DNA of 64,000 nt, from the NCBI GenBank assembly GCA_964543385.1, contig CAZIYE010000001.1:551123-615122 (forward strand), written 5' to 3'. The notes below the pieces were generated by a model. That model was not told the DNA's origin. It did not search any database and worked only from the letters and a program-made list of their open reading frames with translations. Shown here piece by piece: positions 5,129 to 41,593 of the stretch (within the stretch, counting starts at the first letter, position 1; each line of letters opens with the position of its first letter). This DNA is from an uncultured Candidatus Saccharibacteria bacterium. GTDB lineage: Bacteria; Patescibacteriota; UBA1384; XYA2-FULL-43-10; 1-14-0-10-43-13. A program made the translations under genes and the position numbers.

Positions 5129-6287
5129 GGCAAAAAGAATCCTAGTTGATGGCAGGTTTGTCGGTGTTGGCGAATCTATCTCTCGATACACCTTAGAAAT
5201 GCTTAATGGTATTTTAAAATTGGATAAAGAAAATCAATATACCTTACTGATAAGACCCCAAGGTGAGCGTGCACTTGAAAGGTACCCAGATATTGTCAAT
5301 GCGCCAAACCTCAAAGTTGATATTTTAGAAATTCCTCATTACTCACTAGCTGAACAAACGAAGCTTTTAACCTACTTAAACAAAGAGAAATTTGATCTAG
5401 TTCACTTTACCCAATTCAATCATCCTATTTTTTACAAAGGTGATTATGTCACCACAATTCATGATCTTACTCTTGTCGGCCATTTACACTATTTCAATTT
5501 TGCTAAACAATTGGCCTATAATATGGTGATGAAATCGGCTGCCAGAGACTCAAAAAAGGTGATAGCAATCTCAAAGACTTCGATGGACGATGTAATAGAT
5601 TTTTTTGGCACACCAAAGAAGAAGTTTGAGATCATTTATCATGGTATTGACCACGCCAATTACAATTGGCAAGTCAAAAGTCAAAAGTCAAAAGTCAAAA
5701 GTTTTAAGGAAAAATATGGCATTCAACGCGACTATATTCTCTATACCGGTATGTGGAAGAAACACAAAAATTTGATCCGACTTTTCCAAGCCTTCGAAGA
5801 ATTCAAAAAAGAAACAAAAAACCCAATCCAGCTTGTCATGACGGGTAAAATTGATAAGAATGAGCCAGAAGTCATCGCCGAAATGGAAAGAGTCAATAAG
5901 TCTCTATCTTCTATATCAAAAAATCAATCTTCTATCCAAACAACTGGTTTTATTGACGAAGAAGAGCTGCCGATCGCTTATGCTGGGGCGTCTATGTACG
6001 TGATCCCTTCACTATCTGAAGGTTTTGGTTGGCCACCGCTCGAAGCAATGGCTTGCGGTACACCAGTAATTGCCTCAGATATCTCATGTATTCCTGAAAT
6101 ATTGGGTGATGCCCCATATTATTTTGATCCATATAAAATAGAAGAAATAACCAAAGCGATCTCAACTGTGTTGGGTGATGAAAAAGTTCAGAAAGAGCTA
6201 GCGGAAAAAGGGCTCAAACGGGTCAAAAAGTATAATTGGAACGAAACCGCTAAAAAGACCTTGGAAGTATATAAAAGTTTGATATAA
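5103..6287 (+). CDS. Glycosyltransferase family 4 (GT-B, RfaB-like)
   Basis: C-terminal motif [31 protein letters not shown] (GT4 E-x7-E signature). The real start is possibly ATG 5121, overlapping the upstream stop. Confidence 0.85.
5673..5700 (+). repeat. Heptanucleotide microsatellite (GTCAAAA)x4 inside the GT4 coding sequence
   Basis: Direct read: gtcaaaa gtcaaaa gtcaaaa gtcaaaa, encoding [10 protein letters not shown] in frame. Confidence 0.8.
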
Positions 6288-10442: not shown

Positions 10443-12398
10443 TTGATGATAAAGAAAGATAAAGAAACCGCGAGAGAGGAAGATAAAGGGGAAAAGACAA
10501 AAGTAAAAATTCCTCTGAAATATTTGATTTTTGGCGGAGCAGGCCTCATCGTCCTGTCTTTGCTTTCTTTTGCTGCATATTCTATCGCTTTTCAAAATAA
10601 AAATTACATAAATCAATATGTAGGTACTATTAATCTAGGTGGCAGAGATAAGAATGATACTAAAAATGTTTTAAAAGAGGCAGCTGAGAAATATCAGAAC
10701 TCCCAGATCGTTCTCAAGAACACAAACTTAAACAAAGTCTATAATATTGATCCGACAGAAATCGGCTTAACTTTTGATGTAGATAGATCAGCAGATGAGA
10801 TTTGGTCCTTCGGTAGAGGAGGAAGTGCCTTAGGAAATATGCTGGATCAGATAAAAAGCATTTTCGTTCGCAGAAATTTTGATTTGTTTATATCATTGAA
10901 TGAAAAAGGCCTAAATCAAAAGATAAAAACAATTGCCGAAGAACTAGATAAACCTGAAAAAGATTATTCCCTTGTTTACACTGGTAACGGTTTCGAAATC
11001 ACAACAGAACGTGTTGCCGGTGAAAGGATAAACCAAGCTAAAATAGTATTGGATCTGAAAAAGAGCTTTTCTAGCCTATCTACTGCTGAAAATATTTTCA
11101 CAATCGATGTATATGAGCCAAAAGTAACGCTCGAGAGTGCTAATAAGACGCTGTCTGAGGCTAACGGGATTATTTCTCCGGGAGAATTAATAATAAAAGG
11201 GGAAGGCCAGGAATTCAAAGCAGATAAAGACACTATTGCTGGTTTTATAAAATCAAGCCACAATGGTAGCGATTTGGAGCTTGATTTTAATGAAGATAGG
11301 ATAAAAAAGTTTCTCGACGTTGTTGCCAAGGCTGTCAATGTTGATGCTGGCAATGCAAAACTTAGAATGGAAAATGGCAAAGTGGTTGTTTTTAATCAAT
11401 CAAAAGTTGGCAAGGCGCTCAAAATTGATCAGACAATTAATGAAATAAAAAGTGCATTACTGGCAAGAATTACTGGAGTCTATAACCAAGTCACATTAGT
11501 TGTAGAAAGTAAAAGCCCCCAAATTACCGAGACGGAGGTAAGTTCATTGGGGATCAACGAATTAATCGGAACTGCCAGTACTTCCTTCAAGGGATCTCCG
11601 CCAAATCGTGTTCATAATATAACCATAGGGGCAAATGGCTTGAACGGAGTTTTGCTCAAACCAGGTGAAGAATTCTCCACTCTCAGCCATCTTGGCGTAA
11701 TTGATGCCAGCGGAGGATATCTAGAAGAGCTTGTGATCAAAGAGAACAGGACCATACCAGAATTTGGTGGTGGGTTATGTCAGGTCTCCTCAACTATTTT
11801 TCGTACAGCTATATATGCGGGGATGAAAATAACAGAGCGTAGCGCTCACAAATATCGAGTTGGCTATTTTGAGCCACCTATTGGCATGGATGCCACAATC
11901 TATGATCCGGCGCCAGATTTTAAATTTGTTAATAACTATAAGAGTCACGTCCTGATCCAATCAAGGATAGAAGGAACAAAACTTACATTTGATATTTATG
12001 GCACTAAGGATGGCAGAAAAATAGATGTTTCTAATCCTATAGCATTCGATTACGTTAATCCTGGCGAACCGATAATTACTGAGACGGATACTCTACCTGC
12101 CGGTGAAAGAAAAAAAATTGAATCAGCACATCAGGGGGCAACTGCCAGATTTGATTATAAAGTGACGAGCGCTTCTGGGGACGTATTGCAACAAAAGACA
12201 TTTGTCTCCAAGTATGTCCCATGGCCAGAGAAATGGCTAGTAGGTAAGGCTGCTGCTCCTGCTGTTGTCCCTGATCCAATTCCGGCAACGCCCGAGACTC
12301 CGGCTCCATTGCCAACCACAACATGTACCGATGGAACTCAAAACGGTGATGAAACAGGTGTTGATTGTGGCGGAAGCTGCTCAGTCTGTGCGCAATAA
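10443..12398 (+). CDS. VanW-family protein with N-terminal TM anchor and Cys-rich C-terminal tail
   Basis: VanW core PEFGGGLCQVSSTIFRTAIYAGMKITERSAHKYRVGYF. Pro/Thr linker, then the tail CTDGTQNGDETGVDCGGSCSVCAQ. Confidence 0.75.
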   Translation: MMIKKDKETAREEDKGEKTKVKIPLKYLIFGGAGLIVLSLLSFAAYSIAFQNKNYINQYVGTINLGGRDKNDTKNVLKEAAEKYQNSQIVLKNTNLNKVYNIDPTEIGLTFDVDRSADEIWSFGRGGSALGNMLDQIKSIFVRRNFDLFISLNEKGLNQKIKTIAEELDKPEKDYSLVYTGNGFEITTERVAGERINQAKIVLDLKKSFSSLSTAENIFTIDVYEPKVTLESANKTLSEANGIISPGELIIKGEGQEFKADKDTIAGFIKSSHNGSDLELDFNEDRIKKFLDVVAKAVNVDAGNAKLRMENGKVVVFNQSKVGKALKIDQTINEIKSALLARITGVYNQVTLVVESKSPQITETEVSSLGINELIGTASTSFKGSPPNRVHNITIGANGLNGVLLKPGEEFSTLSHLGVIDASGGYLEELVIKENRTIPEFGGGLCQVSSTIFRTAIYAGMKITERSAHKYRVGYFEPPIGMDATIYDPAPDFKFVNNYKSHVLIQSRIEGTKLTFDIYGTKDGRKIDVSNPIAFDYVNPGEPIITETDTLPAGERKKIESAHQGATARFDYKVTSASGDVLQQKTFVSKYVPWPEKWLVGKAAAPAVVPDPIPATPETPAPLPTTTCTDGTQNGDETGVDCGGSCSVCAQ

Positions 12399-24275: not shown

Positions 24276-24332
24276 AATACTTAATCAACCCCCAAGGTTG
24301 ACCATCCAAACCCCATAGGAGGTCACTGTATC

Positions 24333-24497
24333 ATGGCTAGCAAGCCGACAGGTAAAGGTTTCACCTCGTCGCAGATGAAATCTCGAAGGCTCAAGGAGCA
24401 GCGGCAAAAGCGCCGTGAAAGCGAAGCGCTCGAAAAGGCGCGACGTAATCGCGAATCGCAGATGCGGCAACAGGCCCGCCGGTGGCAACCGGCATAA
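24333..24497 (+). CDS. Small highly basic ORF (54 aa) in GC-rich islet 2 (hypothetical; under 60 aa, so absent from the ORF track)
   Basis: Strong SD atAGGAGGtcactgtatcATG. Product MASKPTGKGFTSSQMKSRRLKEQRQKRRESEALEKARRNRESQMRQQARRWQPA. Arginines use CGN codons, unlike host genes. Followed by a GC hairpin. Confidence 0.3.
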   Translation: MASKPTGKGFTSSQMKSRRLKEQRQKRRESEALEKARRNRESQMRQQARRWQPA

Positions 24498-24526
24498 CTT
24501 AGCGCACTAATGCGCACTCATACTAT

Positions 24527-24565
24527 CGGCTCCCTGCACCTCGTGTACGGGAGCCGAAGTCTTTT
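24527..24565 (+). terminator. GC-rich hairpin plus U-tract after the islet 2 ORF (CGGCTCCC-N14-GGGAGCCG aagtcttttc)
   Basis: Perfect 8-bp stem with a U-rich tail. A small GCGCA-ctaa-TGCGC hairpin lies just upstream. Confidence 0.45.
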
Positions 24566-24658: not shown

Positions 24659-27600
24659 ATGACTACAGAAGATGGGGACAAACCAATTGCGGTAGCCGAA
24701 AATCCCGCAGAAGGAAGCGAACTGGAGGAAATCGAAGCATCGGATACCGCTTTGCTGCACAGTGATTTTGATGTGGCTGTTTCTGAGGTTGTGAGTCGAC
24801 AGGAAATAGCGGCTGCAGTTTTTGATGAAGAACAAACCATTTTATCGCAGGCAAGCTCAACGGAAGAATTTATTGGAATTGAGAATGAGACAATCCCGAT
24901 CGAATTAGTGGCTAGTATCCAGGGGATTGAAAAATTATTTGAAGAAATTGACGTAATTGATATTAAGGAATTCCCATCACTGATCCTTAAAATCAAGATA
25001 CTTGCTGATGAAGCAAAAAAATTGCTCAAAAAGTCAGAGGATGGTCTTCAGGCTAGTGGAGGTGAACTTCTTGGTATTGAAAGTGAAATCAAGAAAAAAA
25101 CAACTACTCTGAGTGAGGAAAATGAAAAAGATTTTTGGGGAAAACTTTTCCGCATTGGAGAGCGCAGTTCGCTTAAGAAAGCAATAAAAGATTTGAAGGT
25201 CAAAGAAGGCAAAATTTCTACGATTAAAGATGATCAATTAGGCAGAAAAACTGATGCCGAAAAATTATTAAGAAAAGTTGAAAAATATCTTGATGATACC
25301 ATTGTCAAACTTGTCACTAAGATTTTCCAAAGTTTAAAAGCTGAAACTGAAAAAACTAGAGAAAAAATGACTGATCCGCGGCTAAGAGCTGGTATGAATG
25401 AGCAGCTCGTCGATTCAGAATTTTTACCACTTTTTGAGCAACTAAAATTAGAGGGGAAATATTTTAGCGATGAGGAGATATCCTTTTATCTGCAGCACAG
25501 AAAAGAAATTGCCAGAGACGGGATTCAAGATACGTATAGTATGTCAGCTGAAGATCGAGAAGCATATGAAGCCAAATTTGATCAAATCAGAAAATTAGAG
25601 GAAAGAAGTGGCTATAAATTATACTGGAAGTCAACGGCCCTGAGTCTCGATCCTGATCGAGGTTCGACACCAGATGAGAGATATGACGATATTTTCAAAT
25701 TGTTAACAGAAATAGGTTTGCGCCAAAAAGTTGATGCCGTTCTTGATCTTGTGGGTGATCTTGGTATAAGCACTGAAGCAAAAACGAAAATCTATACTGA
25801 AACGAAGAAGGAGTTCTTGGAATATTATTATAGTTATCAAGATCTAGATAAACGCCCAGACATTCAAGTCTACGCTGATTTTTGTGAAATGCCGGGAGAA
25901 TTGGGAAGATGGCAAACAACTAGGGATATTTGTATAGAGTCCGGCCTGATTGATGAGGCAACTTTCCATCAAGCCGAGGAAATACTAATAGACTATTTAC
26001 AGCAAAAATATCTTAGTAAAAAAGGTGGGGAACCAGATACACAAGTCGAACAGGTTTTTAACTTGGGTAATCCCGGGGTAATCCCCGTTCTTTATCAGTT
26101 TGTAGTTTTGCACGGTAGCCACTCAGGCGAACGGGCAATGAGGCGTCTTCTTACGCTAATAGACGAAAAATATTCCCACGAAGAGGTGCTACAGTCAACC
26201 AAAGATTTGCCAGGTGATGACCAAAAAATTTTTGAGTTGCTCCTTGATAAGGACTCATGTCTTAATAGATTTGCTAGAGAAAGCTATTTATGGACAATGT
26301 TTGGTTACCTGGGAGATCCAAAAAAAACTCTGAGGAATGAGGCATACACCCAGAAATTGCTTGATAGTGGATACCCAGAAGACAAAGCAGCCGAGTTTTT
26401 TACCGGTAGGTGGTGGGGGAAGGACTTACTTATCGGTTGCGTTGAAATTGCCGAGGTCTTGGGCATAGATAAGGAGATAATTATCGAAGATTATTTCAAA
26501 GACATCACTCGTTCAGTTTACCTTGAAAGTCCAGATTCTTTAGAGATTATTGGGTTAGTAGCAAAAGAGCTGGGAGTGCCAGCTCTAGAAATTTATCACC
26601 GCATTGAGTCTGAGATGGTGCGAAGTAAAGAAGATAAGCAAAGCGTTCATTCTCCGCAGGGCATTATTGAATCTTGCAGAGTTTTGTCTGACATTACCGG
26701 CGAAAGCTTGAAAGCTGTGGTTGATCGATACTATCCAATCAAGGCTATTCCAACGTATCAAGAAAAGTACGCTGAAATATTTGAGGAATTAGCACAGATA
26801 CTAGAGGTGCCAGTCGGCTCTCTTGTTTTAGAGAATCTCTTACCACAATTGTCATCCAAAAGGGGAGATAGAGGCGGACTCTATATTGTCAATAGCAAGG
26901 ATAAAAGAAATTTTTTATTCAATTCTGTTAGCTCTTTTTTACAAACCAATCCCGTACTTAGTTCCACAGAAGATTATTGCAAAATTTTCAACCTATTCGA
27001 TGAATTAAATAAAGATTGGTTGGGCTCTGATTTTGAAAAATTTTCTGATGAAGAAAAAGAGAAGATAAATTCAGGCAAAGTTGATCTTGCTAGATCCTTT
27101 GGAGAGATTTTAGCAAAAGGCGGAAATCGAGAAGAGATTATTCGGGCAATTCGGGCATTTGCTCCGGTTATATCTCTGGATGACTCAAAGTATGCTGAAA
27201 TATTTACTCTTTTGGCTGAAACAATGGAAATGGCTCCAGAGTCGTTGGTATCAGAAACGCTTATTTTCGACGAAAAGCTCGGACTTATTCTACCAAAAAT
27301 CAAAAAAAGTGACTCAAGGTGTTTGATCGGAAAGGCACTTTTTGAATTGGCCAAAACCGATCGAGTCCTAAGTTCTGCCAAAGAGATTAAAAAAGTTTTT
27401 AATGCTTTGTCGGCCCTCCAGTTGATTGGGGCAGAAGAAGATCCATCTGATGAAGAAATCAAGGTTATTTTTGAAACAAAGGAATACCTGATTGGCTATG
27501 TGAGGGAAAAAATGAAGAATGATCCAAATAAAATAGACATAATTGGAACACTTATTTCCCTCAAATCAGTTACCTTCCAAGACTTGTTGCTATTTTCATC

Positions 27601-30286
27601 TTTCCGAGAAGAATTTCCTGACTCGCAGACCTTTGAAAAGATTTTTTCGGATGGTTTAATTGCAATTGATCCTAATTTGCAGGAAATTTTTGATAATCCT
27701 AGGAAACTCGGCACAATGAGACCGCAAATTATTTCAAAAATTATCGATTATATTGAGGAGGCTTACAAGGGAGAGGAGATTGATAATGAAAAAATAGCCA
27801 AGGAACTTCTTTCTTTGCTGAATAATATTCGTCATATCTTCGAAAGTAGTGATTCCACGATTATAGAAAAGCGTTCTCTCTTCTTGGAGAAATATACTTT
27901 AGAAGATGCCAAAGATCCTGATTTTAAAATTGCAGTCGAATCATTAATGGAACAAGGGCTGTCATTGCACGAAGCGATTAAGCAGCTTGTTCAGGGTGAT
28001 TTTGAAGATATTTTAATCGCCTCTGGTAGTATTGATATGCAAAAACACTACAAAAAGAAGCTGAAAGACCCAAATATATCAGAAGAAGATCGGTTGGACT
28101 TAGAGAAAAAGCTTAAGTGGATGAAAGAGGCGTACCTACAAGCTGACCAGAGAAATAGAGAAATTTTTCAACGACTGCAGAGAGGGGGCCTGACAGAAGA
28201 GGAAAGAGCAGAAATTGCTTGTCCGCTAGCAACAAGTGTATCCCAAGTTGGTCCTCCAGATGTCACTTACCCGATCCTTGACCAAGGCACTCTATGTGAT
28301 GCTTTACTTGGTGAAATTGCTAAAGACCAGGAGAATAATCTTGGAGCTCATATTTCAAAAACAAGTCGTGTACCAGGAGATAGAAGTACTTTGGCTGGTA
28401 GATTGCCTTCTTATGGTAATCCTCATGGCACTCAGGTCAACCGTATCTATGGAGATGTCAGTGCTAATAAATATCAGTCATATGGACCGGATGGTACAGC
28501 AGAAACACACTTTCAGATGGGGCCAGCTCATCAATGCATTATGCTCGGTCTCCCCAGTACCGAAATATCTGCCATTGTTATTTCTGATACCTCCTTTCTT
28601 GCGGACCAAAAGAAGTACATTGCCATGAAAAACTTGTTTATTCCAATTCTCGATTCCAGTGGCAATAATCTCTGGACTCCTGAAGAGTTCGATCAAATGA
28701 AAATATTTTATTATGCGCTGAATTATAAGGGCTATCCCTTAGCCGTTATTGATAATGTTTATAAATATTATCTGGAACTAAATCAGACAACTGAGAAAAC
28801 AAAACATAATATTGTCTTGAATAAGGCCGTTGATTTGGTTAAAAAGCAGATAGAAAATGATGAACAAGGTTTTGAGGATTTGGCGGTGCTCGTTGACTTC
28901 TTGAAGAGCAATGATCTTAACACCAAGGATATTCAATGGTATGAGGAGGCAGATTTCGAGCAAGTGATGCAAATGGTTGAAGAAAATGTCGGCGCAAAAA
29001 ATCGTTGGAAAGCGAGGGATATACTCTTCATATATCCGGATGACCAAGCTAAAACTCATAGAACAATTGGCGATAGCGTTGATTATGAAAGGCAGATAAC
29101 GAGGCGTCCCCATGGTTTCATCGACTCATTTCTGGACGATCAGCTTGGATACATTTCCCCTGGAAATATAGATGAAAGACGAGCTGCCGAAGGCCACCTA
29201 ACAAGTTTAATGTTCCGCGATTCGATTTCAAGGCAGGCGCGAGAAGGCATAATTGTTGATGACGTGATTGAAACTGCAGAGTATATGACAGAAAAGAAGA
29301 AGGAGCTGATGGTCAAGATTTGGGAAGACGCATGGGAAGATATATTGAAGATGGATTCCATTGATAAAGCTATGGCGGGGCTTTATAAAAAGGCAATAAT
29401 CCCAGTTGTGACTGGTAGCGGTGGCCGAGGAGAGATAACGTTGGGCTCAGATTTGGATTATTCACTTCTAGTTGATGATGATCACTTGTTGGAAATACTT
29501 CCGGAGAGAACTGATCTAGCTCAATTTATTAAAGATCTTGGTAATTTTGTTAATAATGTTCTGGCCATATCAATTAATAAGTCTTTAGGTGAAGCGGGGA
29601 TCAGAGCTGATGCTGGATTGGCACGGAAAGACCGGCAACCGTTTAGCCTGATTAGTCGGATTCGGCAATTTGAGATTAATCCTTCTCAGGGCCGCCAGGA
29701 AGAAGAGCCGACTGAGATTATTAGTAATTATCCTCTTTTTGCAGAACACCAAGGGATTGTAGCTAAATGCAAGGAAGATCTGATTGTTCACAATCAATCT
29801 GCCCATCTACTAGACTCATATATTCTTCGAGATCTGGAAACTGGCTTTGGAAAGGCTTCTTTCACGGCTGAATTTGAGAAATTATATGCCTGTGCAGCAA
29901 GTGGAGAATTATTGCAAAAAATTAAAGAATCACTCCAGCGTTCGTTAGTCTTCAAAATTAACTATCTTCTCTTTTCTGCTTTTGACAAGGGAACTATAGA
30001 TCCGAGTGAGGCTAGTAAAATCCCTTCTGGAACGATTGATACAATTAATTTTCTTAAAGATCATAAAATTTTGACTGATCAAGAAGCGGAAATTTGTATT
30101 GAATTATGGGCAATCACTTACAAAATTAGATTTTTGGGGGAAGTATTCTCTCCAGAAGGTCAGAATGCAGATGAGCTCAAGAAGGTGAAGAATATTACAT
30201 TCAAACTAGATGATATATCCTTTGCCGAAAGAGTTCGCCTTTTCGATCTGCTTAAGCTTTTCAAGGATAATGTACTTTATAAATAG
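24659..30286 (+). CDS. Giant (1875 aa) cytoplasmic multidomain protein. N-terminal acidic/coiled-coil region, long alpha-helical repeat region, and a C-terminal GlnD/GlnE (DUF294)-type nucleotidyltransferase domain.
   Basis: No signal peptide or TM. Internal repeats YAEIFEELAQILEVP / YAEIFTLLAETMEMAP. C-terminal motif PVVTGSGGRGEITLGSDLDYSLLV matches the DUF294/GlnD consensus GSLGRGEQtLaSDqDnalif. No P-loop or kinase motifs. Confidence 0.6.
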   Translation: MTTEDGDKPIAVAENPAEGSELEEIEASDTALLHSDFDVAVSEVVSRQEIAAAVFDEEQTILSQASSTEEFIGIENETIPIELVASIQGIEKLFEEIDVIDIKEFPSLILKIKILADEAKKLLKKSEDGLQASGGELLGIESEIKKKTTTLSEENEKDFWGKLFRIGERSSLKKAIKDLKVKEGKISTIKDDQLGRKTDAEKLLRKVEKYLDDTIVKLVTKIFQSLKAETEKTREKMTDPRLRAGMNEQLVDSEFLPLFEQLKLEGKYFSDEEISFYLQHRKEIARDGIQDTYSMSAEDREAYEAKFDQIRKLEERSGYKLYWKSTALSLDPDRGSTPDERYDDIFKLLTEIGLRQKVDAVLDLVGDLGISTEAKTKIYTETKKEFLEYYYSYQDLDKRPDIQVYADFCEMPGELGRWQTTRDICIESGLIDEATFHQAEEILIDYLQQKYLSKKGGEPDTQVEQVFNLGNPGVIPVLYQFVVLHGSHSGERAMRRLLTLIDEKYSHEEVLQSTKDLPGDDQKIFELLLDKDSCLNRFARESYLWTMFGYLGDPKKTLRNEAYTQKLLDSGYPEDKAAEFFTGRWWGKDLLIGCVEIAEVLGIDKEIIIEDYFKDITRSVYLESPDSLEIIGLVAKELGVPALEIYHRIESEMVRSKEDKQSVHSPQGIIESCRVLSDITGESLKAVVDRYYPIKAIPTYQEKYAEIFEELAQILEVPVGSLVLENLLPQLSSKRGDRGGLYIVNSKDKRNFLFNSVSSFLQTNPVLSSTEDYCKIFNLFDELNKDWLGSDFEKFSDEEKEKINSGKVDLARSFGEILAKGGNREEIIRAIRAFAPVISLDDSKYAEIFTLLAETMEMAPESLVSETLIFDEKLGLILPKIKKSDSRCLIGKALFELAKTDRVLSSAKEIKKVFNALSALQLIGAEEDPSDEEIKVIFETKEYLIGYVREKMKNDPNKIDIIGTLISLKSVTFQDLLLFSSFREEFPDSQTFEKIFSDGLIAIDPNLQEIFDNPRKLGTMRPQIISKIIDYIEEAYKGEEIDNEKIAKELLSLLNNIRHIFESSDSTIIEKRSLFLEKYTLEDAKDPDFKIAVESLMEQGLSLHEAIKQLVQGDFEDILIASGSIDMQKHYKKKLKDPNISEEDRLDLEKKLKWMKEAYLQADQRNREIFQRLQRGGLTEEERAEIACPLATSVSQVGPPDVTYPILDQGTLCDALLGEIAKDQENNLGAHISKTSRVPGDRSTLAGRLPSYGNPHGTQVNRIYGDVSANKYQSYGPDGTAETHFQMGPAHQCIMLGLPSTEISAIVISDTSFLADQKKYIAMKNLFIPILDSSGNNLWTPEEFDQMKIFYYALNYKGYPLAVIDNVYKYYLELNQTTEKTKHNIVLNKAVDLVKKQIENDEQGFEDLAVLVDFLKSNDLNTKDIQWYEEADFEQVMQMVEENVGAKNRWKARDILFIYPDDQAKTHRTIGDSVDYERQITRRPHGFIDSFLDDQLGYISPGNIDERRAAEGHLTSLMFRDSISRQAREGIIVDDVIETAEYMTEKKKELMVKIWEDAWEDILKMDSIDKAMAGLYKKAIIPVVTGSGGRGEITLGSDLDYSLLVDDDHLLEILPERTDLAQFIKDLGNFVNNVLAISINKSLGEAGIRADAGLARKDRQPFSLISRIRQFEINPSQGRQEEEPTEIISNYPLFAEHQGIVAKCKEDLIVHNQSAHLLDSYILRDLETGFGKASFTAEFEKLYACAASGELLQKIKESLQRSLVFKINYLLFSAFDKGTIDPSEASKIPSGTIDTINFLKDHKILTDQEAEICIELWAITYKIRFLGEVFSPEGQNADELKKVKNITFKLDDISFAERVRLFDLLKLFKDNVLYK

Positions 30287-31784: not shown

Positions 31785-32798
31785 ATGGATAGTGAACTCA
31801 AAAAATTAGTTCTCATTGACTCAAACGCGATCATTCATCGTGCTTATCATGCTTTGCCAAAGACTATGTCTACTAGAAAAGGTGAATTAACGAATGTAGT
31901 TTATGGTTATACCACAACACTCATAAAAGTTTTAGAAGATATAAAACCTGATTATATTGCTGCCTCTTTTGATATTTCCAAGGCGACATTTCGAACGCAG
32001 GAGTATGCTGAATACAAGGCGCATAGAGTGAAAGCCGACCAGGAATTATATGACCAAATACCAAGAGTGCGGCAACTTTTGGAAGTTTTGAATATTCCGA
32101 CATATGAGATGGAAGGCTTTGAAGCTGATGATTGTATCGGTACTATCTCCAATATGTTCGAAGAAAGAAGTCCTCAACAAAAGTTTAAAGGCTTCAAAGT
32201 ATATATTGTAACGGGGGATAAGGATGCCTTTCAGCTCATCGACGGGAACATATTCGTCTACGATCTTAAAAAGGGTCTCTCCGTCGCCCAAATCATTAAT
32301 AGAAAAGTGATTGAGATAGAATGGGCGCTACAGCCAGAGGATTTTATTGATCTAAAAGCACTGGCAGGAGATCCTTCGGATAACATTCCTGGAGTGCCAG
32401 GGATAGGCCCAAAAACAGCCATTGATTTGTTGCAAAGATTTGATACTTTAATAAAACTATATGAACAGATTGAATCAAGGGATTTAAATTCCGAGGATAG
32501 CAAACAATTTGATTTGACAGCCAAAGAGCTTAATCTAAAGCCCCGTATTCTCAAACTTCTTATTGACCACAAAGACCAAGCGTTTCTTTCCCAGCGTCTT
32601 GCTACTATCCGACGTGATGTACCGTTAGATTTCAATCTTGAAGATTGTAAATGGGGAGACTATGATAAGGAGAAGGTCCAGGATTTTTTTGAGGAAATGC
32701 AATTTCATTCATTGCTTCGGAGGTTTGGGGCAGAAAGAGCTGTAGAGCCGAAAACAAAAGAGCAAAAAGAAAAAGATGAGCAATTAAAGTTACTTTAA
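31785..32798 (+). CDS. 5'-3' exonuclease (FEN-like; Pol I N-terminal domain encoded as a separate ORF)
   Basis: LVLIDSNAIIHRAYHALP..., GDKDAFQL, HhH region GIPGVPGIGPKTAIDLL. 337 aa. Ends with a stop 14 nt before the polymerase ORF in another frame. Confidence 0.85.
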   Translation: MDSELKKLVLIDSNAIIHRAYHALPKTMSTRKGELTNVVYGYTTTLIKVLEDIKPDYIAASFDISKATFRTQEYAEYKAHRVKADQELYDQIPRVRQLLEVLNIPTYEMEGFEADDCIGTISNMFEERSPQQKFKGFKVYIVTGDKDAFQLIDGNIFVYDLKKGLSVAQIINRKVIEIEWALQPEDFIDLKALAGDPSDNIPGVPGIGPKTAIDLLQRFDTLIKLYEQIESRDLNSEDSKQFDLTAKELNLKPRILKLLIDHKDQAFLSQRLATIRRDVPLDFNLEDCKWGDYDKEKVQDFFEEMQFHSLLRRFGAERAVEPKTKEQKEKDEQLKLL

Positions 32799-32812: not shown

Positions 32813-34081
32813 ATGTCACAGTCAATAATAGAAAAAGCTAAAGTGATGGGCATCACAATTCCTTCTGCAACATCAGAAGATATTAATGAACAGATAAAGC
32901 CTGTTTTGCGAAAAATGGAGCTAGCAGGTATTAGAATCGATACAGCGGTTTTCAAAAGTTTAGAGGATACTTTGAGCGAAAGAGTAGAGGAGCTAGAGCT
33001 TGAGATTATTAAATTAGCTGGAGTTGAGTTTAATATCGGTTCCCCCATTCAGATGGCAGAAGTATTATTTGAGAAATTGAATCTTCCAACCGATGATCTC
33101 AAAAAAACAAAGACGGGCATCTCTACTGCAGCTAGTGAGCTCAAAAAGATTCAGGATAATCATCCGATAGTTTCTTTAATTATTGAGCAAAGAGAGCTTT
33201 CTAAGCTAATTTCGACTTATCTAAAACCAATGCCAATCTTAGTCGATGAAAACTCGAGACTCCACACTACTTATGGTCTTGAAACATCCACTGGCAGAAT
33301 TAATTCATCTGAGCCGAACTTACAGAATATTCCAATAAGGGGCAAATATGGTATGGAGATTAGAAAAGCCTTTATCGCTTCTCCTGGAGCTAAACTAATT
33401 TCTGCTGACTATTCCCAGATAGAGCTAAGGATAGTTGCATGTCTAGCTGATGACAAAAATATGATCGCATCTTTCCAGAATGGAGAAGATATTCATAGCA
33501 GGACAGCCTCTGAAATATTTGAAGTTCCTTTGCCCAAGATCACAAAGGATCAAAGACGGGTAGCTAAAGCTGTCAATTTTGGTATAGTCTATGGTCAAAC
33601 ACCTTTTGGTCTCTCTCAGGCTTTAGGTATAGAGACCTCGAAGGCTGCTGAATACATTATGCACTACTTCGACATACATAAAGGTATTAAGGATTATATT
33701 AATAAAATGATTCAGCAGGCTCATAAGGAGGGTTATGTAGAAACTCTCTTCGGTATGAGAAGATATCTGCCGAATATCAACTCGAGAATCAGATATATTG
33801 CAGAGGGTGAAGAAAGAATGGCAATAAACACTCCTGTTCAGGGGACAGCATCCGAGATCATCAAATTAGCAATGATCAAGCTAGATAGCGAGTTGTCTTC
33901 AAAATATCCAGAGGCTAAAATGCTTTTAACAGTTCATGATGAACTAGTGGTGGAAGTTCCAGAAAAAGATGTAAAAAAGGTTGCGAGTGTGGTTAAAGAA
34001 CTTATGGAAGGTGTAATCAAGCTTTGCATTCCATTAGAAGCAAGCGTGGGTATCGGTAATAATTGGGCTGCAACAAAGTAA
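32813..34081 (+). CDS. polA: DNA polymerase I polymerase domain (family A), lacking any 3'-5' exonuclease domain
   Basis: Motif A LISADYSQIELRIVA, motif B RRVAKAVNFGIVYGQ, motif C VHDELVVEV. 422 aa starting at the thumb/N-terminal polymerase region. Confidence 0.85.
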   Translation: MSQSIIEKAKVMGITIPSATSEDINEQIKPVLRKMELAGIRIDTAVFKSLEDTLSERVEELELEIIKLAGVEFNIGSPIQMAEVLFEKLNLPTDDLKKTKTGISTAASELKKIQDNHPIVSLIIEQRELSKLISTYLKPMPILVDENSRLHTTYGLETSTGRINSSEPNLQNIPIRGKYGMEIRKAFIASPGAKLISADYSQIELRIVACLADDKNMIASFQNGEDIHSRTASEIFEVPLPKITKDQRRVAKAVNFGIVYGQTPFGLSQALGIETSKAAEYIMHYFDIHKGIKDYINKMIQQAHKEGYVETLFGMRRYLPNINSRIRYIAEGEERMAINTPVQGTASEIIKLAMIKLDSELSSKYPEAKMLLTVHDELVVEVPEKDVKKVASVVKELMEGVIKLCIPLEASVGIGNNWAATK

Positions 34082-39034: not shown

Positions 39035-41593
39035 TTAAACTAATTCTTTATAGACATTATAATTTATAGCGATCGTTTTCAATCTTTGCAACCCTTGGCT
39101 TGTCAGATCGTCAATTGAATGAATGCCAAAAAGTTGTAAAACATCATAAAGATTATATTTAGGTAGTTCGCTCAATGCCTCTGTAAGATTAGTAGTTTCT
39201 TCTTTAGACAACTTCTCGGCGTCAATATAAACCTTGCTTTTTAGGGGGTCGGTTCCTGATGGTCGAAAATCCAATTCGATGATAGCAGGGCCTAAATTGT
39301 TCTCATCTCCGAAGATCAAAGGAGTCCCTTCTGGTCTTGTTCTCCCCCCAGAGAGGGGCTCCTCATTCAAAGTCGTAAATCTGATTCTAGACCATAATGA
39401 TCTGTAATTTGGTAAAGCCATAGATAGAATATCTTTTACTTTGTCTAATCCGATATGCCCATCACGAACAGCTTTACTAATTGAAAAGAAAAAATTATTA
39501 AAGTTAGTCTTTAGATCGCTGCATTCTGCAAAAGCCTCATGTTGCTTCTTGAACGGAAGTTGAGCAATATAACCCTGATCTCCATGCAAAATGTCAATTC
39601 TAATATCAATTTTTGACTTCAAGTCGTATTTCTTAAAACCTTGATCAATAAGATTCAAGTAAGAGTAATCTCCTAAAAAGTTATTTTCCTTTAGATATAA
39701 TTCAGAGGAACGTGTAAGCTCTGAGAAAAGGGAATCCGCTGCACTTTTCTCTGGCATTGCCAATGTGTTTTTACCGAAGATGTTATAGCAATCATGGTTT
39801 AGACCAGCGACTCTACCGCCGCTTTCCTCGCTCTTAGCGTGTATCCTTATTGATTTATCCTTGTTTAAGATTATCTTATGACCAAGCTGATCAGTAAATT
39901 CACATTCATTGTCTGAATTCTTATTGAAATACCAATTTTCGATCACTTGTTGCATTTCAGACAGGTTCTTAAAGCCGACTCTCTCCATGAAATTTTCGAG
40001 ACCTACAACTGAGTTAGCAAATTCTGCCCATGCTCTTGTCGATACGTAGGTCGTCAAATAAACCGAGTGATATTTGTCCCATGTACCGTTTTGTTTCATT
40101 CTCTCATAATCAGCAATGTCGAGAAGCAAAAACTCCTTATTCGGTGTCGGAGCAACTAGGATCTTGTCATTATCTAAAATATAATAATCGATGCCGTATT
40201 CGGTAATAAGCCTTCTGTTATTTTCTGTATCGTCAACAACTTGTTTTACTACGAATCTGTCAGAATCTGGGTCACATTCATAAATTTTTATTCCTGTTTG
40301 ATACTTTTTTAATAAATCGCTATAAGGGATAGTCTCAGCAATTTTTTTCATTGTTGTATCAACGCCAAGATGATCAACACTGTAGATCTCAGATCCCGGA
40401 GAACCACCGGTTTTTATAATAATATAGCCCACATTGAAAAATTGGTCTTCTTCGGGATAAATAAGATCGAAAACATCTTTATCCACACCAAGTTTTTCCA
40501 TTAAGGGTTTAAGAGTTCTCCAAGTAGATCCGTTAAGAGGGTTTAAAAGTATTTTATGGCCGTTTTCTGTCGCCTTATTAATTAGATTGACATCATCCGG
40601 AGTCACATTTAAAGCTATACGATAGAGAGTTGTCATTCTATCGTAGGTAAGAGTTTTTTTGATGTTCTTGTGATTTGCTGCTGCTATTGTTACCGAATGC
40701 CCGCCTTCTGCATATATTTTTTGTTCAATAATTTTACGCAAAATTCGGCGGTAATCTTCATATTTATCGGGCAAAAGTTGTGCGCCACCAATGCCCAGAG
40801 CTTTTCTTCCGCACATATAATTAGAACTGTGGCTTGATGAATAATATGTTGATCCAGCGGCTCCAAGTAAGTGAGTTAAAAGCGATATTACTGTTATAGT
40901 CGAACTATCTGAAAAATCACTTGTTGTAATAACGGTGATTCCTTTTTCGGCAAGAATCCTTGATTCAAACTCGATAAATTTGGCTGTATGAGGTCTGACT
41001 TCACCGCTGATAATTTTGACTATGTTATCTTTGACAAAGGGTAATATTTTTTCGAGAGACAATCCATAGATATCTTCTACAATCTCTATTGTTTCTTTGT
41101 CTATTGTCTCTCTTAGCCATTTTGTATGAAGGGTAAAGCCAGGATCATCTTTTTCTATTTGCTCGAGGTTAGTCCTGATCTCATCATGAATCTGTACTAA
41201 AAACTCGGCCTCAGCTTCAACTAAAAGAGTTAAAAATAAGTCGTTGTACATCATGTTGGGATTTTCGCTGTGCAAAATATCCACAAAAGCTCTTATTCCG
41301 GCGGTTGATGCATCCGACTTCTTGTCAAATTCTTTCAAATGTTCGGAAAGATTATACAGATCAGCGAGTTCCGGTGTAACATTTACATCAAAAGCCTCTT
41401 TCTTATCTAAGTCAAAAATTGGCTTGAAAGATATATCATTAGTAGATTCAGCCCACATTTCGTTGTATTTTTGGATTATCGTTTCTCTGAGTCGGAGTTG
41501 GTTCTTCTGAATTTCACCCATTTGTCCGCTATTTTGTGCGGCAAATAAGTCCTTTAACTCCTGTTGGGATAGAGGGGTAACCTTGGCTTCCAT
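39035..41593 (-). CDS. Expanded, divergent alpha-D-phosphohexomutase (PGM/PMM) superfamily protein
   Basis: Metal loop CDPDSDRFVV (consensus DPDADR), phosphate-binding loop RPSGTDPLKSKVYIDAE (consensus RPSGTEP), and a degenerate Ser loop SSSHSSN (consensus TASHNP). 852 aa with an N-terminal extension and insertions. Confidence 0.45.
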   Translation of the reverse strand: MEAKVTPLSQQELKDLFAAQNSGQMGEIQKNQLRLRETIIQKYNEMWAESTNDISFKPIFDLDKKEAFDVNVTPELADLYNLSEHLKEFDKKSDASTAGIRAFVDILHSENPNMMYNDLFLTLLVEAEAEFLVQIHDEIRTNLEQIEKDDPGFTLHTKWLRETIDKETIEIVEDIYGLSLEKILPFVKDNIVKIISGEVRPHTAKFIEFESRILAEKGITVITTSDFSDSSTITVISLLTHLLGAAGSTYYSSSHSSNYMCGRKALGIGGAQLLPDKYEDYRRILRKIIEQKIYAEGGHSVTIAAANHKNIKKTLTYDRMTTLYRIALNVTPDDVNLINKATENGHKILLNPLNGSTWRTLKPLMEKLGVDKDVFDLIYPEEDQFFNVGYIIIKTGGSPGSEIYSVDHLGVDTTMKKIAETIPYSDLLKKYQTGIKIYECDPDSDRFVVKQVVDDTENNRRLITEYGIDYYILDNDKILVAPTPNKEFLLLDIADYERMKQNGTWDKYHSVYLTTYVSTRAWAEFANSVVGLENFMERVGFKNLSEMQQVIENWYFNKNSDNECEFTDQLGHKIILNKDKSIRIHAKSEESGGRVAGLNHDCYNIFGKNTLAMPEKSAADSLFSELTRSSELYLKENNFLGDYSYLNLIDQGFKKYDLKSKIDIRIDILHGDQGYIAQLPFKKQHEAFAECSDLKTNFNNFFFSISKAVRDGHIGLDKVKDILSMALPNYRSLWSRIRFTTLNEEPLSGGRTRPEGTPLIFGDENNLGPAIIELDFRPSGTDPLKSKVYIDAEKLSKEETTNLTEALSELPKYNLYDVLQLFGIHSIDDLTSQGLQRLKTIAINYNVYKELV

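Follow-up and report, generated by a model that had tools for sequence, protein, structure and literature searches.

A rare family of giant proteins from Candidate Phyla Radiation bacteria combines a divergent ADP-ribosyltransferase-like domain with a GlnE/DrrA-type nucleotidyltransferase

In a 64,000-nucleotide stretch of DNA from an uncultured Candidatus Saccharibacteria bacterium (contig CAZIYE010000001.1 of assembly GCA_964543385.1; hereafter, the window), we analysed a giant gene whose product carries a nucleotidyltransferase (NTase) module at its C terminus and, in its middle, a divergent domain resembling ADP-ribosyltransferases (ARTs). The open reading frame (ORF) begins with ATG and runs uninterrupted for 5.6 kb (Table 1). 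Its product of 1875 amino acids (aa) is the largest in the window, the runner-up being 865 aa long, and has neither a transmembrane segment nor a signal-peptide-like N terminus (the highest Kyte–Doolittle value of any 19-mer was 1.51, and the N terminus is acidic); both points agree with the original prediction, which a model had made from the sequence. That prediction had also allowed for an assembly chimera of several genes. The exact 1875-aa protein is recorded on five contigs, the longest of 671 kb, and the three places that we read, which are the separate assemblies SRR12261223, SRR12261225 and SRR12261226, carry the same flanking genes. Because separate assemblies thus hold the identical protein beside the same neighbours, because its conserved core is contiguous in relatives and because its GC content is native (39.0%, against 38.6% for the window), we conclude that the ORF is not a chimera.

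The C terminus was originally predicted to be an NTase of the GlnD/GlnE/DUF294 type. A Pfam search of the whole protein at E values up to 1 returned only DUF294 (PF03445) and a chance match to OrfB_IS605. The DUF294 match is marginal here (22.1 bits for the full protein and 23.2 bits for the core, against a Pfam cut-off of 21), was present in five of five aligned core members and reached 32 bits in relatives. The active-site motif GSGGRGEITLGSDLDY, part of the longer stretch GSGGRGEITLGSDLDYSLLV at residues 1586–1605, supplies the catalytic residues G1586-S1587, D1598 and D1600; together with D1651 as the third carboxylate, these conform to the Pol-beta NTase pattern hG[GS]x9-13 D-x-[DE], and an RQEEEPTEI motif lies at residues 1679–1687. 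In a 24-sequence profile of the family, GS.GR.E....SD.DY aligned to the catalytic G-S...D-x-D of the solved NTases 9xbd, 4ebj, 7ae2 and 6sxj, and marginally to that of GlnE (3k7d). The residues invariant in all 24 sequences (G1586, S1597, D1598, D1600, D1651, G1653, Q1680, P1684, K1756, R1761, P1789 and R1824) comprise a complete NTase active site and basic residues of the helical domain that follows it. The NTase assignment therefore stands, since DUF294 matches above its cut-off with the catalytic residues aligned; of the Pfam models named for checking it, PF03445 matched and DUF294_C (PF10335), GlnD_UR_UTase and GlnE did not. An NCBIfam scan of the protein returned nothing, neither the full protein nor the C-terminal sequence taken singly had a match in a sequence search of the PDB, and profile searches of the PDB gave motif-level NTase matches only.

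An AlphaFold model of residues 1350–1875 was of high confidence (predicted local distance difference test (pLDDT) 91.0, predicted template modelling score (pTM) 0.90). In this model the NTase core is followed by a helical KNTase_C/HEPN-like domain, as in the GlnE/GlnD/DrrA/DUF294 clade, with fold similarity across both parts. K1756 and R1761 (within IKESLQR) and R1824 of the HEPN-like domain are invariant, and the protein stops directly after this domain with VLYK, an ending found throughout the family. The closest group for the NTase, HEPN-like domain included, was that of the protein-AMPylating enzymes GlnE and DrrA. The C-terminal helical domains of GlnD, GlnE, DUF294 proteins and DrrA have been assigned to a HEPN-related clan (PMC3710099).

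The AMPylation domain of DrrA/SidM, a Legionella pneumophila effector (6yx5, 3nku), offers the closest parallel. It too consists of a Pol-beta NTase core with G-S...D-x-D followed by a HEPN-like domain, an effector fold, and likewise forms a single module within a large protein that has several domains and no Sec signal. The two are only 13% identical, however; the giant protein has no Rab-GEF or PI4P-binding domain and carries the ART-like domain and ~1200 further residues upstream of its NTase. It also occurs in bacteria of the Candidate Phyla Radiation (CPR) rather than in Legionella, so that any delivery system would differ. With GlnE (3k7d, 1v4a), GlnD and DUF294 proteins, the giant protein shares the DUF294 match just above the gathering score and the conserved catalytic carboxylates. 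GlnE, however, has two tandem NTase domains, adenylyl-removing and adenylyl-transferring, whereas we found one NTase motif and one DUF294 match. GlnD has HD and ACT domains after its NTase, and typical DUF294 proteins have cNMP-binding and CBS domains as well as DUF294_C, none of which the giant protein contains. Unlike in this comparison group, there was no linkage to glnA or glnB, and glnA was not found among the window ORFs scanned. With its single NTase and without HD, ACT, cNMP or CBS domains, the protein is by its sequence neither GlnE, GlnD nor a typical DUF294 sensor. The large sensor that had been suggested was not borne out, as Pfam detected no cNMP, CBS, HD, ACT, PAS or GAF domain in the protein.

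The segment upstream of the NTase module had been described as a Gly/Pro/His/Cys-rich stretch of unknown fold. Glycine (8.7%) and proline (6.8%) are indeed enriched at residues 1190–1350, histidine and cysteine hardly so, and the fold could be assigned by structure prediction. AlphaFold, given a 24-sequence alignment of residues 1000–1365, produced a confident model (pLDDT 91.2, pTM 0.88) with a helical bundle, marked by the conserved motifs DP..L...F.NP.KLG, SSDST (1063–1067), SGS and ADQRNR (1162–1167), and then an alpha/beta domain with a divergent ART fold. The best ART-fold matches in fold comparison were the nucleic-acid-specific enzymes Tpt1 and DarT, followed by CC0527, OspC3, the Rhs toxins TreX and TreTu, CARDS, heat-labile enterotoxin, pertussis S1, CteC, Scabin and PARP15. 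A Foldseek search with the middle domain gave no significant match; the matches of highest probability (0.5–0.6; TM-score 0.40–0.46 on the target) were structures of DarT, the ART that modifies thymidine in single-stranded DNA (7omv, 7yk3, 8baq). Sequence methods (Pfam and a PDB profile search of the middle domain) showed no relationship to ARTs, and sequence similarity to DarT or to the RNA 2'-phosphotransferase Tpt1/KptA (9ld3, 7yw2) was undetectable. Given the lack of both a significant Foldseek match and a sequence-level signal, we regard the ART-fold assignment, which comes from the model, as consistent but of moderate strength. The context of the domain also differs from that of DarT and Tpt1, in that it is embedded in a giant protein beside an NTase and, in the model, is preceded by a long helical bundle where Tpt1, an enzyme with an R-H-R-R catalytic tetrad, has an N-terminal RNA-binding lobe of the winged-helix type.

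ART classes are set by H-Y-E or R-S-E triads, and divergent sets occur in Tpt1 (H-H-h), DarT and others (PMC8120803). The main family has T-H-G on strand 1 and S/T-E preceding strand 5, as do ARTs of the H-Y-E type. In the window protein, strand 1 reads VSQVG, and S-Q-V-G replaces T-H-G here and in eight relatives (8/23 other aligned sequences); across the 24 aligned sequences, position 1196 is His in 13, Gln in nine and Lys in two, and position 1197 is Gly in 14, Val in eight and Thr in two. By these alignment-based positions the window protein has Q1196-V1197 in place of the first element of either triad. The glutamate before strand 5, E1302 within PSTE, is retained in the window protein and is present in 19 of 24 sequences overall, but in only five of the nine of the Q subgroup, which have conserved motifs of their own (CDALLG, NL..HI..T, RLPSYGNPHG and VNRVYG). 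H1291 is conserved in 24 of 24 sequences and is the only invariant residue in the middle-domain alignment; it lies on another strand and has no assigned counterpart in DarT or Tpt1. A candidate R-S-E-type motif (HISKTS, with R1248) was rejected because strand 1 has no Arg. We read this pattern of conservation as that of a domain under continued selection that has departed from canonical NAD-dependent ART chemistry.

The ART-like domain also occurs beyond the giant family. Four proteins, P0037, P0038, P0039 and P0040, matched the middle domain only. The domain is followed in P0037 and P0040 by a different NTase, with the motif DTGSTGRGT..SDFDF, and P0037 weakly matches a model of the oligonucleotide cyclases of the cyclic oligonucleotide-based anti-phage signalling system (CBASS); in P0039 it precedes a region that is kinase-like by eye only. 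These architectures suggest a wider pairing of the ART-like domain with nucleotide-using enzymes.

An exhaustive HMMER search with residues 676–1875 against 1.84 billion cluster representatives (E ≤ 1e-3) identified 40 related proteins. About 20 of them (P0002–P0021; full-length members mostly 1500–3600 aa) have the entire C-terminal ~900–1000 residues in common and unrelated N termini, and in this core family the helical region, ART-like domain, linker and NTase occur together in constant order. A second group (P0025–P0035, mostly ~1670–2000 aa), found in Logan assemblies only, shares just the last ~350 residues, that is, the NTase module. Searching a single genome for each of 185,579 species, we found five loci, all in metagenome-assembled genomes (MAGs) of the CPR, labelled Saccharibacteria, Parcubacteria, Berkelbacteria and Peribacteria (two loci), with 35–47% identity across ~900 residues. 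Three loci were found in 241 million metagenome records and none in viral contigs. A word-indexed protein search returned only the query itself for the full protein, nothing with a 5-sequence alignment and only P0017 for residues 1185–1875, and relatives have up to 48 exact 5-mers in common with the query. All relatives from named genomes were CPR MAGs, and every one was annotated 'hypothetical protein'. The family is thus rare, unnamed and, among named genomes, restricted to the CPR. The relatives, together with the split PolA and the 671-kb contig, suggest that the window too comes from a CPR organism. Both catalytic folds are of known kinds; the combination of ART-like domain and NTase, the conserved cassette and the family itself appear undescribed in a non-exhaustive full-text search of open-access literature, in line with the novelty originally claimed for the architecture.

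Several relatives have peculiarities of their own. P0025–P0035 share a conserved 'MGHGT...' region upstream of the NTase module, which we considered as a possible ART-like domain and rejected (hhalign probability 2.6%). P0013 (3599 aa) has a sub-threshold DUF3990 match at its N terminus, a hydrophobic segment near residue 2733 and a C-terminal extension of ~1500 aa, and P0005 (1548 aa) continues for ~740 aa past the usual VLYK end, with another HGT-type motif. The frame in L007 (288–5474, in a MAG labelled 'Peribacteria') is open over 1729 aa only under genetic code 25: it contains 40 in-frame TGA codons, so that UGA must read as sense, and ends at TAA. Read with code 11, the frame in L009 is broken as well. 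The MAG label or the assumed code of these two loci may be wrong, with a Gracilibacteria/Absconditabacteria-type code in use. The homologue in L012 (3262–8436; GCA_003557185.1, PWPK01000120.1) is split by an in-frame TAA (5998–6000) into genes of 912 and 811 aa and has the degenerate NTase motif GSLGTMESGFASDNDF; either pseudogene formation or a sequencing error probably explains this. A gene with a Fic domain, another AMPylase fold, lies upstream of it at 2292–2900.

The N-terminal half of the giant protein is specific to its lineage; the single match to residues 1 to ~890, in the related locus L006, is weak and 83 aa long. Of the ~250 acidic N-terminal residues originally described, residues 1–120 are strongly acidic (net charge −23), whereas residues 120–260 are K/E-rich with a net charge of +5. 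The ~900 aa of repeats described after them proved overstated in extent: there is one tandem duplication of a ~140-aa unit (residues 695–840 against 836–985; Smith–Waterman score 102, compared with 31 ± 5.4 for shuffled sequences and attained in 0 of 200 shuffles). YAEIF is present only twice, at residues 704 and 845, and further N-terminal segments show no similarity to one another.

Table 1 Features of the giant gene and of the region directly upstream (positions in the window)
Feature	Positions	Strand	Residues	Remarks
Upstream basic ORF, 54 aa	24333..24497	+		17 K/R against 5 D/E; not part of the system
Terminator-like hairpin between small ORF and giant gene	24522..24560	+		−24.7 kcal/mol, z −4.1
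Whole giant ORF, stop codon included	24659..30286	+	1–1875	1875 aa; identical product in independent assemblies
Lineage-specific N-terminal region	24659..27328	+	1 to ~890	No homologues detected apart from the weak L006 match
Tandem duplication, ~140-aa unit	26741..27613	+	695–840 and 836–985	KYAEIF begins each copy
All-helical start of the family core	27656..28228	+	1000–1190	From alignments; AlphaFold pLDDT 91
Divergent ART-fold domain (moderate-strength assignment)	28229..28723	+	1191–1355	
Conserved helical linker	28724..29245	+	1356–1529	GYP..VID.VY.YY, KH.IVL.KA, DLAVLVDFLK.NDLN, PHGFID
GlnE/DrrA/DUF294-type NTase alpha/beta core	29246..29728	+	~1530–1690	
NTase active-site motif	29414..29461	+	1586–1601	
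C-terminal helical HEPN-like/KNTase_C-type domain	29729..30283	+	~1691–1875	

The genes that flank the giant gene are housekeeping genes. Upstream lie those for GroEL, a PRC-barrel protein, EF-P, SSB, S6 and YchF, and downstream those for a CDF cation-efflux transporter, a stand-alone 5'-3' exonuclease and a polymerase-only PolA, as well as holA; more distant window genes encode an H+-PPase, a P-type ATPase, CTP synthase, PNPase, RNase J, FtsK and PPDK. The neighbourhoods of the related loci all differ: TGT, a PaaX-like protein and a methyltransferase in L004; a methyltransferase, NusA and YidC in L005; and Memo, AMMECR1 and a radical SAM protein in L008. DarT has a DarG macrodomain partner, whereas we found no DarG-like macrodomain adjoining the giant gene among its neighbours in the window or in the related loci.

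The small basic gene upstream had been regarded as dedicated to the giant gene. A basic 54-aa ORF with an AGGAGG site does exist there, within the 504-bp gap upstream of the giant gene. A terminator-like hairpin follows it, promoter-like sites lie after the hairpin just before the giant gene, and none of the related loci has a homologue of the small ORF close to its giant gene. On account of its own terminator-like hairpin and its absence from the related loci, we conclude that this ORF is not a dedicated partner. It lies in a GC-rich island (24300–24560; 52–62% GC in a 38% GC genome), in which, as in the window as a whole, a search of Rfam found no RNA family. The island could encode a small protein associated with ribosomes or nucleic acids, or an RNA that is as yet unrecognised.

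On these grounds we tentatively favour, at a little less than an even chance, a soluble, single-gene, multi-domain nucleoside monophosphate (NMP) transferase, or AMPylase, that has a variable targeting scaffold and plays an effector-like role against a host cell. The conserved cassette of ~900–1000 residues would consist of the helical region, the ART-like domain, the helical linker, the NTase and the HEPN-like domain, the last binding nucleotide or substrate. Using ATP (or another NTP), the NTase would modify a hydroxyl group of its macromolecular target with an NMP; that group would most probably belong to a protein side chain, and the reaction would then be AMPylation. We propose this by analogy with the three closest NTase structures and from the complete, invariant active site: the NTase most likely transfers an NMP, and AMP in particular, as GlnE, GlnD and DrrA do. 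The ART-like domain probably works alongside it as a non-canonical catalytic or ligand- or substrate-binding module rather than as a classical NAD-dependent ART, since His-Gly, the pair that contacts NAD, is replaced by Gln-Val and the Q subgroup retains the strand-5 Glu only loosely. Its constant co-occurrence and order with the NTase, and its pairing with other nucleotide-using domains elsewhere, suggest that the ART-like domain, the ~400 residues of conserved helices and the NTase would act as one functional cassette. The ~900-residue N terminus, which is different in every relative, probably serves in targeting or partner recognition.

An effector- or toxin-like modifier acting between an episymbiotic CPR cell and its host cell, rather than in nitrogen or second-messenger signalling, is the most likely role and the least certain step of this proposal. 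The sporadic distribution, the hypervariable N termini, the lack of conserved neighbours and two folds that are typical of bacterial effectors, as in DrrA, DarT and ART toxins, all point to it, and a rare, sporadic, CPR-restricted family with these properties fits an effector or conflict protein better than housekeeping signalling. Polymorphic toxins and multi-domain effectors likewise have a conserved catalytic C-terminal cassette behind hypervariable, lineage-specific N termini and a sporadic distribution, and extra toxin-type modules occur in relatives of the giant protein too (for example, the DUF3990 match in P0013). Unlike polymorphic toxins, however, the giant protein has no recognisable trafficking domain (Rhs, PAAR, LXG, T7SS and similar) and its gene no downstream immunity gene, and the conserved part of the family is two enzyme modules together with the ~400 residues of conserved helices rather than a swappable tip.

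Several points weigh against our preferred explanation. The giant protein has no secretion signal, and no secretion-system or immunity gene lies beside its gene in the window or the related loci, so that the argument for an effector role is indirect. The targets of other Pol-beta NTases include RNA ends, antibiotics and HEPN toxins, and a protein target is therefore not guaranteed; we infer the substrate, nucleotide specificity and activity of the family members by analogy. The pocket positions Q1196, H1291 and E1302 were assigned from strand order and alignment, not by superposition. Finally, the interrupted frame and degenerate motif of L012 indicate that the gene is dispensable in some lineages.

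A more far-reaching version, which we hold to be doubtful, sees in the cassette an effector module of a kind not recognised before, in which episymbiotic CPR bacteria combine two enzymes. Giant scaffolds particular to each lineage would carry it into the host bacterium, where it would couple ADP-ribose/NAD chemistry to AMPylation. Coupling on one target might take the form of two sequential modifications, or the ART-derived domain might read or position the substrate for the NTase. If this were true, the pairings in P0037, P0040 and P0039 would point to a wider design of ART-like reader plus nucleotide-transferase. A large share of bacterial diversity belongs to the CPR, or Patescibacteria, whose members live attached to other cells; to our knowledge, almost none of the proteins that they use on their hosts have been described. 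With its ART fold and DrrA/GlnE-type AMPylase fold, the giant family offers a concrete, testable candidate for a CPR host-interaction factor. It would extend the small set of GlnE/DrrA-type protein AMPylases by a new branch, and it provides an example of an ART fold that seems stripped of its canonical NAD-binding residues yet remains under selection beside another nucleotide-using enzyme.

Alternatively, the protein may be an endogenous regulator, whose helical N terminus would sense a signal or bind a partner and whose NTase would reversibly nucleotidylylate a target in the cytoplasm of its own cell, as GlnE acts on glutamine synthetase and GlnD on PII. DUF294 is indeed its sequence family, it lacks a secretion signal, and its gene lies among housekeeping genes, at native GC content and with no immunity gene beside it. 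We nevertheless think this unlikely, because DUF294 is all that Pfam recognises where a sensor domain would be expected, the family is extremely rare and patchy even inside the CPR, its N terminus is not conserved among relatives and no conserved neighbour presents itself as a candidate target. A protein with one NTase domain also has no adenylyl-removing twin such as GlnE possesses, and the L012 relative appears pseudogenised. Were the giant protein an internal regulator, organisms whose regulatory repertoires are minimal would prove to have a new kind of control based on AMPylation.

The ART-fold comparison bears on another explanation, as Tpt1 and DarT, its best matches, are both nucleic-acid-specific. 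The DarT/Tpt1-like domain and the NTase might act together on the ends or bases of DNA or RNA, as a toxin or in repair or modification, for example by coupling ADP-ribosylation or 2'-phosphate chemistry to adenylylation. Many Pol-beta NTases work on nucleic-acid ends, and the ART domain retains His-Gly and Glu in the majority of the family. The NTase itself, however, together with the HEPN-like domain, most resembles the GlnE/DrrA group of protein AMPylases, the window protein lacks His-Gly, Pfam detected no nucleic-acid-binding domain and no DarG-like macrodomain or RNA-ligase partner lies nearby; we therefore rate a nucleic-acid-directed enzyme, including the coupled example, as quite unlikely.

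A role in anti-phage defence or abortive infection seems improbable. A large single-gene NTase system of this kind would be activated by infection and modify cellular or phage components, and a sporadic distribution with a variable N terminus is typical of defence genes. The weak PADLOC matches (PDC-M70A, E 2e-4; PDC-S09, 4e-3) are motif-level, spanning only ~60–70 residues around the generic NTase motif rather than the full length. P0037, a distant relative, does pair the ART-like domain with a CBASS-cyclase-like NTase motif, but no defence-related family turned up among the neighbours examined in the window and the related loci, which are housekeeping genes, and viral contigs hold no homologue. 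A decaying or non-functional ORF, or an artefact of annotation or assembly, as the in-frame TAA and degenerate motif of L012 and the lack of homologues of the N-terminal half might suggest, is highly improbable for a 5.6-kb frame that is uninterrupted in a 39% GC genome, identical in independent assemblies, 35–47% identical to relatives across a stretch of ~900 residues in which the catalytic residues are invariant, and predicted to fold with high confidence.

We made a few further observations in the window. DNA polymerase I is split there into a 337-aa 5'-3' exonuclease gene (31785–32798) and a 422-aa gene for the polymerase domain only (32813–34081), which lacks a 3'-5' exonuclease domain. 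A second large uncharacterised protein of the window, an 852-aa ORF on the reverse strand (39035–41593), has no Pfam match at E ≤ 1e-5. Two further genes encode cell-envelope proteins: a DUF4012 protein of 705 aa (465–2582) and a VanW/PG_binding_4 protein of 651 aa (10443–12398).

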